Shown piece by piece: positions 7,469 to 46,213 of a DNA stretch of 64,000 nt. The notes under the pieces were generated by a model. It saw only the letters and a program-made list of their open reading frames with translations. It made no database searches and was not told where the DNA came from. Location: sequence record PQ511146.1. The stretch is one strand, 5' to 3'. Position 1 is the first letter of the stretch, and each line of letters opens with the position of its first letter. Made by a program: the position numbers and the translations under genes. The stretch comes from Escherichia phage NHEP1.

Positions 7469-8518
7469 ATGAATTTAACACCTCGCAGCACCATGGTACA
7501 CGGCATGAAAGAAAAACAGAACGGCTTCGAACCGATGAGTAATAAAATGTTTGGTATGCCTGGTGGTATTATGGAAACATACAGCTACCCAACGCCAGTT
7601 GTTGACCACGTGCTTTATATTGACGATCTTGAGGATTTGCAGGATCATATGTCCCGTTTGCAAACAATTCGTATGGCACAGCCGGAAGAAAGTATCCGTG
7701 TAATTGTTAACAGCCCTGGTGGTTGCGTCCACATTGCCATGGCGTATTTGCAGGCATTCCGCGAGTCTCAGGCAAGCGTTGTTGTACACGCTGAAGGGAT
7801 GTGCTGCTCAGCAGGAACAATCTTATGGCTGGGTTGCAAAGAACGAACTGTGGCTCCGGACACAGAGTTTATGTTCCACTACTATCAAGGTGGCACCTAT
7901 GGCAACGGTGTGAACATGAATACTCAGGTCAACTACTGGAAGAAACGTTTTGAACGCCTGATCGAAAAATACTACGGTGGGGTTCTGACAGAAGATGAGA
8001 TCGCATCCATCACGGCTGGTGGAGAAGTGTGGTTGGATGGAGAAGAGCTGGCAGCTCGAACTGGTGCTATCATTCTGGACGATGAAAACATTCAGCGCAT
8101 TCAGAATGGGCAGAAACCGAAAAAGCTTTTGGCAAAAAGTGATGAAGAAGGTGTGCTAGGCGAAGCAGGCCTGCCAGAGATTCACCAATGCACATCTCTG
8201 GACGAGCTGGTTCACGCTGTTGAGTCTGCAAAAGCAAATGGTATGAAAGGTGATGTTCACACTGTGTTCCTGAATCTGCAGATGGAGAGTGGTGAGACCG
8301 TTAAGATTGCACTGGGTGAGATTACCTCGGAAGATCTGCAGCGATTCTCTGTGGTAGAGCTTCAGGACATTTTGTCCCAATTGAAAACCACCCTGAACGG
8401 AGGTGAAGAAGTTCAGGTTAAAGATAAGACCCGCAAGCGTCTGGTGGACAATATTATTAAAACAGCAAAAGAGCTCAATGAAAAAATCCTGGGCGCAGGA
8501 ATTATCGAAGAAGCTTAA
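7469..8518 (+). CDS. ClpP-family serine peptidase-like protein with C-terminal extension
   Basis: VNSPGG motif, candidate Ser in MCCSAG and His in MFHYYQGG spaced as in ClpP. Confidence 0.65.
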   Translation: MNLTPRSTMVHGMKEKQNGFEPMSNKMFGMPGGIMETYSYPTPVVDHVLYIDDLEDLQDHMSRLQTIRMAQPEESIRVIVNSPGGCVHIAMAYLQAFRESQASVVVHAEGMCCSAGTILWLGCKERTVAPDTEFMFHYYQGGTYGNGVNMNTQVNYWKKRFERLIEKYYGGVLTEDEIASITAGGEVWLDGEELAARTGAIILDDENIQRIQNGQKPKKLLAKSDEEGVLGEAGLPEIHQCTSLDELVHAVESAKANGMKGDVHTVFLNLQMESGETVKIALGEITSEDLQRFSVVELQDILSQLKTTLNGGEEVQVKDKTRKRLVDNIIKTAKELNEKILGAGIIEEA

Positions 8519-19970: not shown

Positions 19971-20547
19971 ATCTGGTGAACGATTCCATACCTTAAGCAG
20001 TTAATATCATTACAGAGCGTTTAAAGGCGGCTTACAAGCAACTCTCTATTTCGAGCGTAGCGAGAACGCACGTCCGTTTTGACCCAAATCACCATACGCT
20101 CGGATTTTAACCAAACCCTCGCGGTGTTTCTGTTGACACATTACCGCTCCTGAAATATGCTTATAGCATCGACACGTTCCAGCCATATGTCGATAAAGTC
20201 TTATTTTTTAAACATGTTGCCGGAATACTCACGGGTGGAACATGACCAACACACATGCATCTACAGAAACATCTGGAGGAGTGAAAGAGGAAAACTTCAA
20301 TTCTGAGGATTCTCTATCTCCGTCCCAGGTGGATCCTGAGGCTGATGACCTAACGTGGGAGGATATCATAGCCATCTGGTTCTCTATTATGCCTGAGCAC
20401 GAAGAGTTCAGAGGTGGGAGACTATAAAGCACCGAGCCCACATAAGTTTATCATGCTAAAGCATGGCCTGAAGAGGCAAACGTGCATAATTCCATCGTAT
20501 TGGAACGTGTAAACCCTGTTCACACTCTCATTTCCAGAGGAGATTCC

Positions 20548-20763
20548 ATGAAAATAGAGATATTTGGTGGGGCTGACAACACTCGTGGCCTGATTTACCT
20601 TGAATTCGATGAATCATACCTGCCAGAGGTGTTAAATATAGATGCTGTTGCGGAAGCCCTTGATGTAGACCCTAAAGATCTCTACTCCCGTGCTGAGATT
20701 GATGGTTGGGAAGAGACTCTGAACATTGATTTCAGTGAAGTAGTAGATGAACCTTTGGACTGA
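20548..20763 (+). CDS. Small acidic hypothetical protein
   Basis: ATG 20548 after GAGGAG; 71 aa. Confidence 0.4.
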   Translation: MKIEIFGGADNTRGLIYLEFDESYLPEVLNIDAVAEALDVDPKDLYSRAEIDGWEETLNIDFSEVVDEPLD

Positions 20764-23270
20764 CACACAAGTCTGCTTTGCAGGTTTAGCTGCTCAGCTA
20801 AGGTTCTGGAGGCACCTATAACATCTTCCAACTAAATTTCCTACCAACACAGTTACTTACCTACCACACATGACTGTTTGCTTGTTTAGTGAGCAGTCAT
20901 CACTTGACATTCTTGCCTATCTTGATAAAATTAAGTTCTTCTCTTTTCTTTTACCGAGTAATTCGGGTTTTCTGTTCTCTTCGGTTTGAAGGGGTATGGA
21001 GATACACCTGAGTGAACAGGGTGAACAACCGAACCTTTAGCTATGGCATTAGCATGGCGAAGCGGACGGGTGACGAAAGAGGGGCCGGAGGACACCAGTC
21101 ACTGCCATATAGTATATGGGTGATAACCTGAAGAGTCTGAATAAGTGTTTAAGTACCAGTCAGAGGAAAAGGTGAATGGTAGCCGAAGGGGGAGGGGGGT
21201 TTCTTATATCTTTAATTTGTATACTTTATATACACTTGTAAACCAATTCAATTAGAATCTGTTTACCACACAAAGGGGATGGAGACAAATATCACCTATT
21301 AAACTTGAATTATTTATAGAAAATACCACAACACCCGTTAAGTCTTTGATTTTACACACAAATCTTACAAATATCCTACCTCCACATTTAACATACTTGT
21401 AACATATTCCATATCCTACCTGCCTGATCAATTTACTCCATCACATTCCCACATTTTCCCTGTCTGTACTACCCCACCCCCGCCGGGAGTCCCGTCATAT
21501 CTGGCTTTCCAGCAAATATCACACCAACAAATATCATCACCTGAAGAGGGTTTCATCCCATAATACCTGCCTTACCTGAAGAGCGCTTCATACACCACGT
21601 AAATTTTTTAATTGACCCCTCCCCGCCGCCAGAGAGGTTGGCTTTTCCCACACAGGCCTGAAGAGTCAGCCAGAAATATCTGAACAGGCAGTTATGTCCC
21701 GATTTTGTGCTTGTCCTACAGGAGTGCTGCCAGGCGGACGGAATGGGAATACTTCTCATTCTTATAATAATTCTCAAATATCGAGGCAGTGAGGCAAATT
21801 AATAGGCCAGGCCGTTCACACAGTGGCACAACATTTGCAATCTATCTTGTGTGGATGAATGAGAATACCTATCATTGTGAGAATGGTTATCATTACGGGC
21901 AATTTAACATAATACCCATTATGCGCACCACTGGCGATACATACAGGGATTGATAACATGGGTTACTGTTTACGCATATAACAATTATATTTCTTACTAT
22001 TTGTGTGGGATATAGTTAGCAACCAATAGATTAGATATTGACCTGCAGACTTCTGACCGTCCAGACGTCTAAACGCCCACACAACAAGGATTATACATAC
22101 ACTCCTGCATGTAACCAGGGCCGCAAAAATGCTACCATACCAGTTTGTAAATTTTTCATGCAGCACTTGACAAAGAGGAGAAAAACTTGTCTGACACAAT
22201 GTGACAATTTTGTCACTTTTGACACTTTTACCTTTGACACAATATGACACAATAACGGCTGTTACTATTCCATATCTCACTGTTTACGCCTGAATAGTTT
22301 ACGCAAAAACTGTTTACACAGAGATGATAAGCCATGCCATTCGTTTGCATGAAAACAATTAACAAGATAACAATTGACAAGCTAACAGCCAACAAGCTGA
22401 CAGTTAATAAGTTAATAAGTTATGACATAATATAAAAGCAGGGCAACTATTAGAAGATCTATAGTTGCCTTGCTTGTTATGTCATGATTAACTAAATACA
22501 AGGCAACTATGATCTGAATAATAGATTGCAGACAAACTATCACGGGGGTGATTGTTACTGCTTTTATATTATGTCGCGACTCCGTCGCGCCATGCCATTC
22601 GTTTGCATAGTTGCCTTATTGTTACAGGTAAAACAATTACATTATTAATTATTTCTTATCTTTCTCTTAGTCATCTAATGATTCCAGTCAGTATAGTAAT
22701 GTACAGTAAACATTAGACGACTAAATATTTCTCTGTGTATAATAACTTATCGTGACAATTTCGAACTGTTTACGAAAAATGTTGACACCTGAGCTGATTT
22801 ATGTTATGCAGTTTACACGAATAATTATTTTATGCAGGTATTGACTATTCCGTTATTCTGTGGTTGGAATAAATACTTTGCAGACTATAGAATGGCGTGC
22901 GTACGTGAATTCTGAGATCTGGCGGCTATAGTTATACTCGATTTTTCGCGTAGAACACGCTTTCGATGCTGTGTAAGTGTATGACTTATAAAGATTTTTA
23001 GTTGTTGACAAGATATTGGAGATGTGCATCAGGTTAAAATTTGTGCAATAGCGGCATTACGTGCACTTTTGGGAGAGAAAACGGGTAAAAATGGCCCTGC
23101 TACCACACAATGAAAGATTATGCAATAGTTATTTTCCATGTATATTTGTACAGTATGTGGGATTGATGGCTAGTCAATTATTCCACTTGCCAGGTAGGGC
23201 CGTTTATGGTAGGAGAAGAGCAGACAAAAAGAAAGGGGCCTTTAAGCCCCTTGATAATTCAGTTAAGAAA
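20764..23270. repeat. ORF-poor, repeat-dense non-coding zone at the convergence of plus and minus transcription blocks
   Basis: No convincing ORF of 100 aa or more; at least five short repeat families seen (see findings). Confidence 0.6.
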
Positions 23271-23690
23271 TTATAATGATTCGTATATTTCAAAAATCCG
23301 ATTTGCCAGGTCGTTACGGTAGCGGAATTTTTCATCGCGCTTGATCATTAAATCCTTATAGCCGTACTCTTTAAGCACTTCATTAACTTTATAGCGGCAT
23401 ACCTGCATATTATCTTGAGCGTCACCAATAAACTTGTTGCTGTGGTGCATTGCTTTAATTTCTTCTTCCAGGACCAGGGCAACTACCCGGACCGGATCAA
23501 GCTGATAGGCGGTAACATCTATGCGGCATTGTAGACGGCTTTTAACGTCTGCCACCGGATATACTGCAACCTCTTCCCCGTCAACATTGACAATAATTAG
23601 TTTACCATCGATTTCGAATCCTTTCGCCGCCGGACCGTGACAAAAAGCGTTATCAAAGCTATATGCCGGATTATCAGATTTAATGTTCAT
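23271..23690 (-). CDS. Hypothetical protein
   Basis: Track ORF 139 aa; ATG with AGAGG RBS. Confidence 0.5.
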   Translation of the reverse strand: MNIKSDNPAYSFDNAFCHGPAAKGFEIDGKLIIVNVDGEEVAVYPVADVKSRLQCRIDVTAYQLDPVRVVALVLEEEIKAMHHSNKFIGDAQDNMQVCRYKVNEVLKEYGYKDLMIKRDEKFRYRNDLANRIFEIYESL

Positions 23691-23834
23691 GGTGTTTTTA
23701 CCTCTTAGTTAATTTTCTTACAACTTCCCTTCAAAAAAGAATATAGCAAAACTGCCGATCCCTGTCAACAAGGGATAGCATAATTTTTATGTGATCAAGG
23801 GGCTTTATCGCCCCTGACCATGCAACCTGTTGTA

Positions 23835-24098
23835 TTATTTGTTGCTCATCCAGTTTTCCCAAGCTGCCTGATAATCTGCCTCACTACGGCGGATCTCTTC
23901 TTGTTCTTCAAGCCGGATCTCTTCTTCCAGGTACCCCAAGATGTCAGCCTTTTTAGTCTGGCGCAACATCCAATCGTCTTTTTTGCGAGTAAAGATCTTG
24001 TACGCTTTCTCGCAAACTTCTTTTTTGCTACCTTTTTGGACTTCAAGAATTCTGTAAGCCATGTACTGAACTAGTTTGAGCTGGTCAAGACGTTTCAT
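23835..24098 (-). CDS. Hypothetical protein
   Basis: Track ORF 87 aa; promoter and hairpin upstream. Confidence 0.45.
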   Translation of the reverse strand: MKRLDQLKLVQYMAYRILEVQKGSKKEVCEKAYKIFTRKKDDWMLRQTKKADILGYLEEEIRLEEQEEIRRSEADYQAAWENWMSNK

Positions 24099-42136: not shown

Positions 42137-42507
42137 TGATCTGCCTCCTTCTTGTTGAGCCGGAACACTGCAATAATAGCATTTCCAAGATGCAGTGTCA
42201 AATCATTTCCCAGATACCATAACATTCCACGGTCATCTTTAATGAAAGGGTAACAATCCGGTGCCTTCCAGACATTATACACTTTGCCGACCTGAAAGAA
42301 ATCAGGCCCTGTTGGAATTTTAGTACCGGGCCATACTTGGGACACCTGAACGCATTCTACCTGCATAATGACAGGGATAGTCATGGAGGTAAATGTTTTT
42401 GTTGGTTCTACTACCATAAAAGTCTCCTCTCTGTCTAACAACACTTCCGTGTGTTGATAGTTTACATTAGTGACAATCACCCCAGTTACGACCGCACAAG
42501 TATTCAC
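42133..42507 (-). CDS. Small protein, DDxGxxW(F/Y)L paralog family
   Basis: KDDRGMLWYLGNDLTLHLG. Confidence 0.5.
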   Translation of the reverse strand: MNTCAVVTGVIVTNVNYQHTEVLLDREETFMVVEPTKTFTSMTIPVIMQVECVQVSQVWPGTKIPTGPDFFQVGKVYNVWKAPDCYPFIKDDRGMLWYLGNDLTLHLGNAIIAVFRLNKKEADQ

Positions 42508-45500
42508 CTGTGATCTGGAACGGAACGCCCATCATTTTAGAAGCCTGCCAGAAGCAATGCACCACCATTTCGCCCACAGGGCTCCAGATAAGCTCAAGCT
42601 TTCCGTCATCATTCAAGATAGGATCGTATACCGTATTTCCATCCTTGTCAACCACTTCGTTTCCGTCCTCATCTTTGCGTGCCTTTTTGTACTTATGACC
42701 GTCGAACACATGAAGTTTAGCCTCTTGTTGGGCTTTAAATGTTTCCAGCTCTTCAATTGTGTCGAAGGTGTATACGGTTTTATACTTAGGTGTGTCAGGC
42801 ACTTGAAGCTGATATTCGTCATGGTAATAGATAATACGACGAACACCCTCATCATACCATCCACGCTTCACCATCTGGTGGTGCATGAGGATTCCGACCA
42901 AGTCGCACAACGATGCACCGCCATTTTGCTGATATGCATTAAGCAAAGAGTGTTTAGAGCGGGTCCAAATGGCATGCCCGTCAAAAGAGTAGATAAATTT
43001 CTTACCTGTTGCTTCCCAGAATTTCTCCAGATCCTCTTTACGCCCCTTAAGGCCCGGGTTGGCATCCCAGAGAGCATCAATTACTCTCTGTCCAAGTTCT
43101 GGAGAGATATCTAGCATATCTGCAACTTTATCTTTTTGTGCCCCGTACATAACCCCATATGTGACAGGCTTACCATCGTTACGGGAAATCTCCTTGCCTG
43201 CTACAGAAGAGTAAGCTTTGGCGTTATTACAGTTACCGCACACTGCCACTTTACCATTCCTTCTCACAATGATTGCTCCAGAAGGGACGGTAACGCAATA
43301 AACCAAAGAACCGCTCACCTCGACAGACTCTTTAGATAGTGTCAGCAACCCTGCTCTCTGTTTGCTACCAATCGTGATTCTGTGCTGTACGGAACGACCT
43401 TTTTTGTGAATCGCCACCGTATTATTCCGTAAACCACACTGAGTAGCCAGCGCAGACACAACCTCTACAGATTTCTTCCTGCACCCGGCCTGAGAGTAGT
43501 AGGCAACTTTTCCACCTTCGGAAGATACCCACCCGTCCCAGTTAGATAAAGAAGCTATAAACAGGTTTTTAGATTCTTTATCAAGGTCCATCAGGTTGTA
43601 GGTGAAATCCTTATTGCTGTCCAAAAACTCAAATACCCAGGACGGAACGTGGAATTGGAACCTTCTCGCCAGTAAGCCCCCTTTTGTGGTTTTCCCGCTC
43701 TGCTCTACATAACTAAGGCTTAGAGCAGAAAAAGTATCTAAAAGCGTTGCAACTTTTCTGCCCTTCCCGACCTGAATCCTGCACACGATGCTGCCGTCCT
43801 TATTTGTATGCAAGTGCCCATCATCGTGAATAGCAATAAGCAAATTAACCTGGGCAGGAGATAAGGTTGTATTCCCATAAAACTCTGCCGCATGGATAAA
43901 CCTTCTTCCTGAATTAGACCCTTTACCTGCTTTCAGGTCTTTTGCCAAATCTTCAAACAATTTATTGCTTCTGTGATCCACGGTCAGCATCCTGTGTTGA
44001 TCTGTAACCATAAAATCCACACTGCTGTTGTGGAAATGATACATATCCCCACAATAACTACGCTTAACGTAATTTAATGGAGTAACAAGGTTCATCGACG
44101 AGGTGTTGTGATCGTACTGGAACACCTGTGTTCCCGGATCAAGATCTTCAAACCTCACCCACCCTTTCTCCGTGAGAATTTGTGTATCTCCTGAATAACA
44201 GTGTGCATCGCCGTTACTTACAACATCATAATACAGACCGTTGTCAAACTCAAAGGCACCCCAGGCCCCGATGAGCTGCTCTAAGTTGGACCCGTCAATA
44301 CCGATCTCAAAGTATCCTGGAGGAACACCCCACAGACTACGCATCTCTTTACCCATAACCACTTTAGGAGATGGTTTAGGCATGTTTGCACAAATACTAT
44401 GTTTCTGTCTGGAAGTGTTTGTTAATCCAGAACTTTTAGCAGGAAGCTTGTGGTCAATCTTCAAACGTGGATGATTAAGAAGACCAGTATCAACCTTATC
44501 TTCCTTGATTGGATCAAGGACCGATCTGCGGTTTCGCAATGATAACCACAAAACGATATCTTTAGCCATCTCTCCGTTCAATTTTTCAAGATTCGGGCAC
44601 AGGTGTCCAAACGTATCTTTCAGTTGCGGAGAAGTAATAAGCGCTCTGGCTTTTCTACGTATCTTCCCAAACACTTCCTTTTTAATCCTTTCTGAGTTAG
44701 GGAAGCTTCGGAACTTATGCACAGTTGTCTGGAACTTGGCATCAGTTTTGTTCCAGAAGTTGATAATTAGATCACAATACTCTGACTCCAAAAGCTCGTC
44801 CATATATGCATATACTCGTGCATCAACATCTGCATCAGGTAAAGCTTTCTTCTTGCTGTCTTTAGTTACATCTTTAGTTCTCCACATTGTTGGGAGCCAA
44901 CCAGCACTGATCAGGTATCGCTTGATGTCGTCCTGATTGCTGATTTTCATAGGTATCTTGCAGTCAGGCATTCGCTTCTGCTGTAGGTCACTTATCGCCT
45001 GATCCATCAGCTCTTTAGGTAAAGGGTGTGGTGTAGAAGTTCCTTTGATATACCCCCTCAAGAAATCAGCCATCTTATCGGGGTCTTTACAGCCCATCTC
45101 TTCACACCATTTTATCCCCATCTTACTTACATCCCCTGTGGAGGTAAATGCTCGCTTAGGAGGAGCTTTGAACTCTAAAGCACTCATGTCCACAGGGTAG
45201 CCAAGCTTGTCTTTTAACCATTTCCAACCATTATTGGAGATTGTCCCATCTTGGTTAAACGGCTTTTCAGGGAACTTAGGCCGCTGAGACATTGATAACT
45301 CTTTTAAAGGAAGTTGTGGTTCAACACGATCAGCGATCTCTTTCATCCACGCATCGCAACGGTCACGTAAAGCAATAGCCCCATCTATGTCGAAATACAC
45401 CCCCTGTCGAGCCTGCAGCTCCATCAGGAAGTGCTGTAACATGCCTCGGCGTAATGCGTTCTTCCAGGTGATCTTCTTGAAGCCTTTCGGCTTCTCTTTG

Positions 45501-46213
45501 GCAGGATCGTACATAAAGTTCTGCATGTCAGATTTGCCGTAGAATACACCTTTTGATTCCGCTACCAACTCCTTCCAGAGCAACTCCTGGATGATAACGT
45601 CCTCGAACACACGATCCACATACTTCCACAGTGGAAGCTCACGCCAGTCATCGATTTGAACTTTCTGGTTACCAAGGGCATAGCCCCATGCCATAAGGCC
45701 ATGAGGCCCAACAGGCTGCATTTTCTTGGTAACTGGATTGAATACTGCGTCCGGACAACCTTTTGGCAAAGGGCGGTCAGGCCACAAGATTCGGCTCATC
45801 GCTAACGTATCAAACAGATTAACCGGGTGGTCGTTGATAGTCCCCATGCATTTAGGATCACGGAACATATCAAAATGAATACCGGATAATCTTTCCATCA
45901 GCATAAAGTCGTAACTGTAGCAGTTATGACAGTTCAAAGCCGTAGGTGACCAGTCTGAATTGCCTGTAAGCCAACCTTCCAACTCTGAAAAATCTGCTAT
46001 GCGAGCCTCAAAATCTGTATAAAGGGTCTTCTTTGCCAGAATGAAGTTCTTAGCTTTCTCCACATCCTCTTCAGAGTAGTGTGTGCGGTCATTTAGAGGA
46101 AGGAACAGCATAAAACGGTTCTTATTCAGCTCTTTAAACAAACCGCAGTGATAATAAAGATCTGGGTCTTCCAGCAGGCCAGAGGCCTCAAAATCGAACG
46201 ACCACATGCTCAT
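42467..46213 (-). CDS. DNA polymerase, family A (T7 gp5-like), intein-containing
   Basis: N-terminal exonuclease motif FDFEASGL and YHCG; motif A-like GIDGSNLEQ...FDNG; motif B-like NAK...YGVMYGA; motif C-like YYHDEYQ; AAGGAG RBS. Confidence 0.85.
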   Translation of the reverse strand: MSMWSFDFEASGLLEDPDLYYHCGLFKELNKNRFMLFLPLNDRTHYSEEDVEKAKNFILAKKTLYTDFEARIADFSELEGWLTGNSDWSPTALNCHNCYSYDFMLMERLSGIHFDMFRDPKCMGTINDHPVNLFDTLAMSRILWPDRPLPKGCPDAVFNPVTKKMQPVGPHGLMAWGYALGNQKVQIDDWRELPLWKYVDRVFEDVIIQELLWKELVAESKGVFYGKSDMQNFMYDPAKEKPKGFKKITWKNALRRGMLQHFLMELQARQGVYFDIDGAIALRDRCDAWMKEIADRVEPQLPLKELSMSQRPKFPEKPFNQDGTISNNGWKWLKDKLGYPVDMSALEFKAPPKRAFTSTGDVSKMGIKWCEEMGCKDPDKMADFLRGYIKGTSTPHPLPKELMDQAISDLQQKRMPDCKIPMKISNQDDIKRYLISAGWLPTMWRTKDVTKDSKKKALPDADVDARVYAYMDELLESEYCDLIINFWNKTDAKFQTTVHKFRSFPNSERIKKEVFGKIRRKARALITSPQLKDTFGHLCPNLEKLNGEMAKDIVLWLSLRNRRSVLDPIKEDKVDTGLLNHPRLKIDHKLPAKSSGLTNTSRQKHSICANMPKPSPKVVMGKEMRSLWGVPPGYFEIGIDGSNLEQLIGAWGAFEFDNGLYYDVVSNGDAHCYSGDTQILTEKGWVRFEDLDPGTQVFQYDHNTSSMNLVTPLNYVKRSYCGDMYHFHNSSVDFMVTDQHRMLTVDHRSNKLFEDLAKDLKAGKGSNSGRRFIHAAEFYGNTTLSPAQVNLLIAIHDDGHLHTNKDGSIVCRIQVGKGRKVATLLDTFSALSLSYVEQSGKTTKGGLLARRFQFHVPSWVFEFLDSNKDFTYNLMDLDKESKNLFIASLSNWDGWVSSEGGKVAYYSQAGCRKKSVEVVSALATQCGLRNNTVAIHKKGRSVQHRITIGSKQRAGLLTLSKESVEVSGSLVYCVTVPSGAIIVRRNGKVAVCGNCNNAKAYSSVAGKEISRNDGKPVTYGVMYGAQKDKVADMLDISPELGQRVIDALWDANPGLKGRKEDLEKFWEATGKKFIYSFDGHAIWTRSKHSLLNAYQQNGGASLCDLVGILMHHQMVKRGWYDEGVRRIIYYHDEYQLQVPDTPKYKTVYTFDTIEELETFKAQQEAKLHVFDGHKYKKARKDEDGNEVVDKDGNTVYDPILNDDGKLELIWSPVGEMVVHCFWQASKMMGVPFQITGEYLCGRNWGDCH
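43232..44200 (-). mobile_element. Intein (about 323 aa) with LAGLIDADG-like endonuclease motifs inside the polymerase gene
   Basis: Begins CYSGDTQIL right after GDAH; T..H block; LIAIHDDGHL and FIASLSNWDGW motifs; ends ...VAVCGN before +1 Cys; extein boundaries by alignment-by-eye. Confidence 0.75.

Follow-up and report, generated by a model that had tools for sequence, protein, structure and literature searches.

Repeats recognized by terminase, such as the R sites of lambda cosB, the pac hexamers of P1 and the pacL/pacR boxes of SPP1, are one type of short phage box, with several copies near the cut site for an oligomeric small terminase subunit and usually within, or next to, the gene for that subunit. 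A different type of example is T7, where CCTAAAG arrays beside the terminal repeat have long been proposed to act in concatemer processing or junction marking, a role that is only presumed. Dunn and Studier are said to have named these short-repeat arrays SRL/SRR in 1983. On checking the T7 sequence, the 160-bp terminal repeat is found to have CCTAAAG at 17, 41 and 60, with a 13-bp-phased array following at 175-332. Phased direct repeats with a conserved core and AT-rich DNA close by are also the mark of the iterons bound by lambda O, P1 RepA and plasmid Rep, where the period is 19-23 bp. In phage P4, multiple copies of an annotated 'ori type 1 repeat', (A)CTGTTCACC, are present in the non-coding replication/regulatory region, 10-11 bp apart and in both orientations, and it is to these type 1 repeats (TGTTCACC) that the alpha primase-helicase binds, through its C-terminal winged-helix domain. 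Dealt with here is an array of GTTYAC units in a region free of open reading frames (ORFs) within 64,000 nucleotides of Escherichia phage NHEP1 (PQ511146.1), this whole stretch being 'the window'. The array is a genuine, conserved and phased set of probable protein-binding sites, and begins shortly after what, by homology, would be the direct terminal repeat (DTR) of the phage.

Judged by its sequence the window is from an rV5-like coliphage (Vequintavirus), and more than 100 genomes of that group match its positions 21000-23300 at 90-98% identity. Together with the remaining 85 kb from ECP32, a near-identical phage, it amounts to approximately a whole genome (about 133-137 kb, myovirus). Genes on the + strand stop near 20760 and those on the - strand at 23271, and the convergent blocks are separated by the ORF-free region of ~2.45 kb (2,471 bp as tested, 3.9% of the window) that holds the motif copies. 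It is the counterpart of the interval between ORF163 and ORF164 that the rV5 authors called a 'non-coding' box without proposing a function. A coding role was considered and rejected, as the records of relatives are either unannotated there or carry inconsistent small ORFs, and the rV5 authors also took the DNA as non-coding. No tRNA or tmRNA is present in the ORF-free region, and comparison of 20000-24000 with Rfam gives nothing at E<=1. Among the 18 aligned related genomes used for comparison, the region is mostly 90-100% identical, with the neighbouring gene lower at about 72%. In the literature that was searched the arrays are not described, and neither is an origin or transcriptome for Vequintavirus.

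A sequence-only reading had noted six copies of a recurrent motif, spread over about 850 bp, as a possible binding-site array. Every one of the six exists where it was placed, and a seventh, at 21259 (CTGTTTACC), had been overlooked. However, only three of the six match the strict 9-mer TGTTTACRC, and for that 9-mer the whole 64-kb window shows no significant enrichment (3 seen versus 1.09 expected, with 10 of 100 shuffles reaching 3). The ORF-free region by itself is strongly enriched. There the + strand has six copies of [AT]GTTTAC[AG] and the - strand none, and in 1000 first-order Markov simulations of the region the mean was 0.36 and the maximum 3, with none reaching six. For CTGTTTAC the comparison in the region is 5 seen versus 0.078 expected, these five being among only six + strand copies in the entire window. 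Of five occurrences of the longer 11-mer AYWGTTYACRY in the window, four are in the ORF-free region and one is in the other 61.5 kb; it is absent from the other 85 kb of ECP32. Pairs of cores 15 or 16 bp apart are found nowhere else in the window or in that 85 kb. A chance cluster was tried as an explanation and set aside, the local enrichment test being decisive even though the strict whole-window test is not significant.

The picture of six equivalent copies does not hold, since the array proper has only three, at 22279-22320. The copies at 21966 and 22766 are conserved singles, and the one at 22809 is a doubtful member that may be of chance origin. Coordinates are collected in the table.

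Features of the ORF-free region and its surroundings (window positions unless a relative is named)
Feature	Position	Strand	Remarks
Motif copies	21966 CTGTTTACGC; 22280 CTGTTTACGC; 22296 AGTTTACGC; 22310 CTGTTTACAC; 22766 CTGTTTACGA; 22809 AGTTTACAC	+	
Tandem array, three 15-bp units ACTGTTTACGC / ATAGTTTACGC / ACTGTTTACAC	22279..22320	+	begins 88 bp past the DTR boundary
Single copy ACTGTTTACGC	21965..21975	+	inside the DTR; GTTTAC core kept in 18/18 relatives
Single copy ACTGTTTACGA	22765..22775	+	GTTTAC kept in 18/18; nearly invariant block
Weak copy CAGTTTACAC	22809..22818	+	GTTTAC kept in just 13/18 relatives
Extra copy TCTGTTTACC	21258..21267	+	474 bp left of the DTR; GTTTAC kept in 13/18
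DTR-equivalent segment, 459 bp	21733..22191	.	occurs a single time, as it would in a concatemer or circular assembly
TGACAY short-repeat array	22192..22250	+	direct copies at 22192, 22202, 22220, 22235 and 22245; inverted copy near 22210
Box GCCATGCCATTCGTTTGCAT closing the array	22331..22350	+	identical second copy at 22589-22608 (100%); conserved in relatives
DnaA boxes TTATCCACA	L003 6845-6884; also L027, L029		direct orientation; not in the window's lineage

The regular-looking spacing claimed around 22280-22320 is in fact exact, with cores at 22282, 22297 and 22312, i.e. in 15-bp steps, and Tandem Repeats Finder gives a period of 15 with 2.6 copies. More informative is what becomes of the array in relatives. 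When the interval is bounded by the conserved ...AACTTGTC on the left and the conserved box GCCATGCCATTCGTTTGCAT on the right, the 18 genomes have 17 distinct versions of it, 118-219 bp in length. In each, TGACAY-type units spaced ~10 bp come first, followed by one to eight GTTYAC units; in rV5 itself there are about 10 by eye, degenerate ones included. Core-to-core distances of up to 40 bp in the relatives are 15, 16, 30, 31 or 32 bp, with no others. Conservation extends beyond the pattern used for the search: of 75 units, 72 have A at -2, all have Y at -1, 73 have R at +7 and 73 have Y at +8. From these nearly invariant positions the consensus AYWGTTYACRY follows; the four to five spacer positions between cores are not conserved. 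Identity among the 18 genomes falls to 0.42-0.65 at 22200-22450, and to judge from the alignment this is repeat-array turnover and not decay.

Such rapid turnover of copy number and unit sequence, in company with adjoining arrays that are likewise hypervariable, is what a non-functional minisatellite arising at a recombinogenic genome end, through slippage or recombination, would display, and a chance cluster might be included under the same heading. Either is improbable. Chance is excluded by the local simulations, the core is conserved while its spacers drift, and at the isolated copies, 21966 and 22766, GTTTAC is intact in all 18 relatives. The motif and its phase also persist in a lineage whose surroundings cannot be aligned. 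In its members, the divergent rV5-like relatives L003, L027 and L029 from one metagenome, the ORF-free region is alignable only in stretches of ~100 bp at 73-80% identity. Even so, all three have either one GTTYAC unit or a pair spaced 16 bp ahead of a conserved TTGTGTGGGA, at the place of the window's 21966 copy, and L029 has three to four units at 15-16-bp steps ahead of a duplicated box, in the same position as in the window. That the motif has been kept, along with its phase, orientation and position, despite so much turnover points to a core under selection for DNA recognition. The proposal of a possible binding-site array is therefore supported in part, with one orientation, a 15-16-bp phase, a conserved 11-bp core, free spacers and persistence all consistent with it, though the six-copy picture in which it was framed is not.

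The relationship of the array to a genome end comes from the records of relatives. In the EdH4 record the final 459 bp are 100% identical to the initial 459 bp and map to window 21733-22191; the YN3 and ECP2309 records end at the base homologous to 22191 and begin at 21733. (Several GenBank records of relatives begin 168 bp ahead of the search query.) Korf et al. 2019 describe 'short terminal redundancies of 458 bp'. Terminal duplications in three records, taken with the 458-bp literature value, place physical genome ends in the ORF-free region, and 21733-22191 would then be a DTR of the kind seen in related phages, assigned to this phage by homology. At the right boundary the sequence reads ...CTTGACAAAGAGGAGAAAAACTTGTC|TGACAC..., with the hypervariable arrays starting on the next base, and identity drops from 0.97 at 22150-22199 to 0.42 at 22200-22249, a collapse exactly at the boundary. 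This coincidence of a reported boundary with a break in conservation is independent support for the boundary being real. On the left it reads ...GGAGTGCTGCCA|GGCGGACGG..., and there is an indel-rich zone on the outer side. In the alignment of 21700-21732 relatives have insertions, roughly 25-70 bp in length, just outside the left boundary, and the 12 nt at the boundary itself, GGAGTGCTGCCA, are conserved.

The parallel to T7 is in layout. In both, copies of a short core in direct orientation are found within the terminal repeat, and a tandem array, also phased, comes just past it; here the copy inside the DTR is that at 21966, present in 18 of 18 relatives, and the array 88 bp past the boundary is, like it, all on the + strand. 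Differences are several. Core sequence and period are not the same (13 bp in T7 versus 15-16 bp), an extra TGACAY array intervenes here between boundary and GTTYAC array, and the phage is a large myovirus unrelated to T7. T7 also has the same heptamer on both flanks of its repeat, whereas here the left flank has a single GTTTAC, that at 21259. Of the features that define the T7 type, the locus accordingly shares an array next to the DTR (by homology), a phase in the ~12-16-bp range and copies inside the repeat, without arrays on both flanks. The likeness to the lambda, P1 and SPP1 sites is in having several short boxes near a presumptive cut site, with the difference that the large terminase gene is ~45 kb away, as placed in ECP32.

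From these considerations, the reading favoured, with moderate confidence, is that the GTTYAC units are sites for one sequence-specific DNA-binding protein and form part of the DTR/concatemer-junction region, with a likely role in end recognition or packaging. Several copies of the protein would bind the phased sites; it may be supplied by the host, or be the terminase small subunit in oligomeric form or an accessory factor for end recognition. The complex of protein and DNA so formed would mark the concatemer junction, at which terminase would cut at the DTR boundary, with packaging starting or ending there. The step served by the binder could be cutting, repeat duplication, end replication or DNA entry.

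A number of points weigh against this. The ORFs flanking the region have no DNA-binding domain matches in Pfam, and the ECP32 annotation shows no terminase small subunit beside the large one. Unlike T7, the left DTR flank has other motif families (CCTGAAGAG, four copies, and AAATATC, six copies). What the T7 arrays do is itself unsettled, and tandem arrays near ends could in part be by-products of slippage or recombination. The DTR assignment goes back to three GenBank records, in which the orientation was possibly copied from one to another, and a single sentence in one paper. In another paper a Vequintavirus is assigned headful packaging from PhageTerm analysis, and circular permutation is described for the rV5-like phage PhiTE. 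As to candidate binders, the labels 'DNA translocase FtsK' and 'Rel homology' attached to ORF164/165 homologues in some records are without Pfam support, and resemblances to half-sites of PhoP, CpxR, TyrR and LexA were discarded for mismatch with the 15-16-bp spacing.

The main rival to end recognition is that the units are origin iterons to which a phage or host initiator binds and then opens nearby AT-rich DNA, as at the origins of lambda, P1, plasmids and P4, with an origin at a genome end having a counterpart in the T7 secondary origins. Phased direct repeats with a conserved core are typical of iterons, an AT-rich stretch (22600-22760, 27-28% G+C) is 280 bp from the array, and the ORF-free DNA is better conserved than the neighbouring gene. 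The core here, ACTGTT(C/T)AC(G/A)(C/T), is nearly identical to the P4 ori type 1 repeat (compare gacTGTTCACCg in P4 with aACTGTTCACGt in rV5), and in both phages multiple copies are in non-coding DNA, though at other distances and, in P4, in both orientations rather than one. With only 8-9 bp of core involved, the resemblance may be coincidence. No P4 alpha homologue or origin-binding domain was detected in the window, and a phmmer search of all six-frame window ORFs with P4 alpha, both entire and as just the C-terminal 130 amino acids, gave nothing below E=0.4, so a P4-like initiator was rejected as a candidate; the window's own primase-helicase is of the DnaB/T7 gp4 type.

Initiation by DnaA has its own two sides. 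L003, L027 and L029 have three perfect DnaA boxes within 45 bp, inside their DTR equivalent, whereas the window has no DnaA-box cluster and the ORF-free region only two boxes with one mismatch each. Further, the 15-16-bp period is shorter than that of the usual iterons, copy number varies from one to eight among close relatives, and no initiator gene is recognized among the flanking ORFs. Cumulative GC skew peaks here, which with co-oriented replication and transcription would signify a terminus and not an origin, but the skew follows the direction of transcription and so is uninformative about an origin; as an origin marker it was rejected. An origin reading is, on balance, possible but rather unlikely.

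A composite of the packaging and origin ideas would have the whole ORF-free region as a multi-part 'telomere-like' hub. A dedicated end-binding protein would read the P4-like GTTYAC iterons and couple initiation of replication at the genome end with formation of the 459-bp DTR, lineage-specific repeats would co-evolve with their binders, and conserved non-coding RNAs (ncRNAs) would join in. The repeat sets do differ by lineage, with TGACAY versus TAGGCATAC and GGCAACTAT versus CAGCGTTAT. The composite taken as a whole is tentative, and unlikely.

Alternatively, the units might serve transcription, as operator or activator sites for ncRNAs of the region or early promoters, or as -35-like decoys (TTTACA, TTGACA-like) that hold RNA polymerase or a sigma factor. 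GTTTACA and TGACA do resemble the -35 hexamer TTGACA, and a conserved TTGACA starts 8 bp downstream of the ACTGTTTACGA copy at 22766. The region has at least one strongly promoted candidate ncRNA, and in PhiTE an intergenic locus in a similar part of the map is expressed as an ncRNA. However, inspection of both strands revealed no -10 element at a fixed spacing from the units, and hence they are not promoters. A promoter scan gave 17 sites where 11.9 +/- 3.0 were expected, a number short of enrichment, none of them using the units. Sigma-70 or T4 MotA-type promoters had been considered specifically and were rejected as inconsistent, only the 21966 copy having TATATT, at +13. Three to twelve phased copies would also be unusual for an operator, and a transcriptional role is distinctly unlikely.

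Least probable, and by a long way a minor contender, is action of the repeats as RNA, in a repeat-containing ncRNA, a protein sponge or a type III antitoxin mimic like the pseudo-ToxI of PhiTE. The precedent is in PhiTE, where ToxI-like repeats that can expand are located between genes at about 106.7 kb, comparable in map position to the rV5 non-coding box. The unit here is 15-16 nt versus 36 nt for ToxI (type III antitoxin units being about 34-45 nt), none of the sites in the promoter scan is placed to transcribe the array, and Rfam is silent as noted above. A contiguous core with free spacer shows no sign of RNA pairing.

The candidate ncRNA is of interest in its own right. It is a putative structured RNA of about 270 nt at 20904-21205 (+), with a strong sigma-70 promoter at 20904-20931 (TTGACA-16-TAAAAT with TG), and no Rfam match. 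The sequence 3′ of the promoter is 97-100% identical across the 18 relatives, exceeding coding DNA. The divergent lineage (L003, L027 and L029) has its own promoter at this locus, TTGCAA-17-TATAAT, and retains the blocks CTGAGTGAACAGNGTGAACA, CCTGAAGAG and GTTTAAGTACCAG and a 3′ G-run. In the RNAalifold prediction a 5′ CU-rich tract pairs with the 3′ G-run, with double changes in 12 pairs, from two lineages only.

Several other repeats and boxes adjoin the array. The TGACAY array, with periods of 9-10 in the tandem-repeat scan, directly abuts the DTR end with its first base; its number and sequence are hypervariable in relatives (column identity to the window 0.42), and in the L003/L029 lineage TAGGCATAC repeats are in its place. 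The divergent lineage's counterpart of the duplicated box GCCATGCCATTCGTTTGCAT is GCGCCATGTTATCGTTGCATA, also duplicated. Directly past the first box, at 22354-22422, are A/C-rich repeats AACAATTAACAAGAT (period 15) and AGTTAATA (period 8) that vary in relatives, many of which have a GC-rich hairpin insert instead (GGTGACC...GGTCACC). Between the two GCCATGCCATTCGTTTGCAT boxes is an inverted-repeat element (22424-22624) with perfect 18-nt arms at 22424-22441 and 22558-22575, enclosing hairpins and the motif CACGGGGGTG. Within it are four copies of GGCAACTAT, two direct and two inverted, all four being replaced by CAGCGTTAT in L003/L029 and by a third version in the Phapecoctavirus-like L005. 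A structured RNA is one possibility for the element, and a group of protein sites specific to each lineage is another.

On the minus strand of the same element, at 22436-22475, a 15-bp hairpin followed by TTTTATATTAT resembles an intrinsic terminator, and the Murica and Alma records have a terminator annotated in roughly the same part of the ORF-free region. Its distance past the terminator of the last minus-strand gene (23233-23252) is ~760 bp, and its position suggests a separate minus-strand transcript within 22476-23230. To the left of, and inside, the DTR equivalent (21120-21790) a motif family ACCTGAAGAG is found at 21126, 21539, 21574 and 21657, together with a second over-represented family, CAAATATC, in six copies; both are conserved in the divergent lineage. 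An inverted GTAAAC at 21238-21243 is near the extra copy on that flank. L003 has, at 7716-8486, an ORF of 256 amino acids inserted in the ORF-free region that is not in the window and may be a mobile or homing-type gene. Far from the region, the DNA polymerase ORF (42467-46213 (-), 1248 amino acids) has an apparent intein-like insertion (...CYSGDTQILTEKGW...).

Phages of the rV5 type are widely used candidates for therapy and biocontrol, and their non-coding box has been without an assigned function since 2013; the array supplies a concrete one that can be tested. The packaging mode of Vequintavirus has been inconsistently reported, as headful in some and with a 458-bp terminal redundancy in another, and arrays that start exactly at the reported boundary are support for fixed ends. 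The layout known from T7, with short repeats next to the terminal repeat, would now extend to an unrelated group of large myoviruses. The arrays give specific sites at which a terminase, an end-binding protein or an origin can be sought, and would be cis-acting elements that engineering or rebooting of rV5-like genomes would have to keep.

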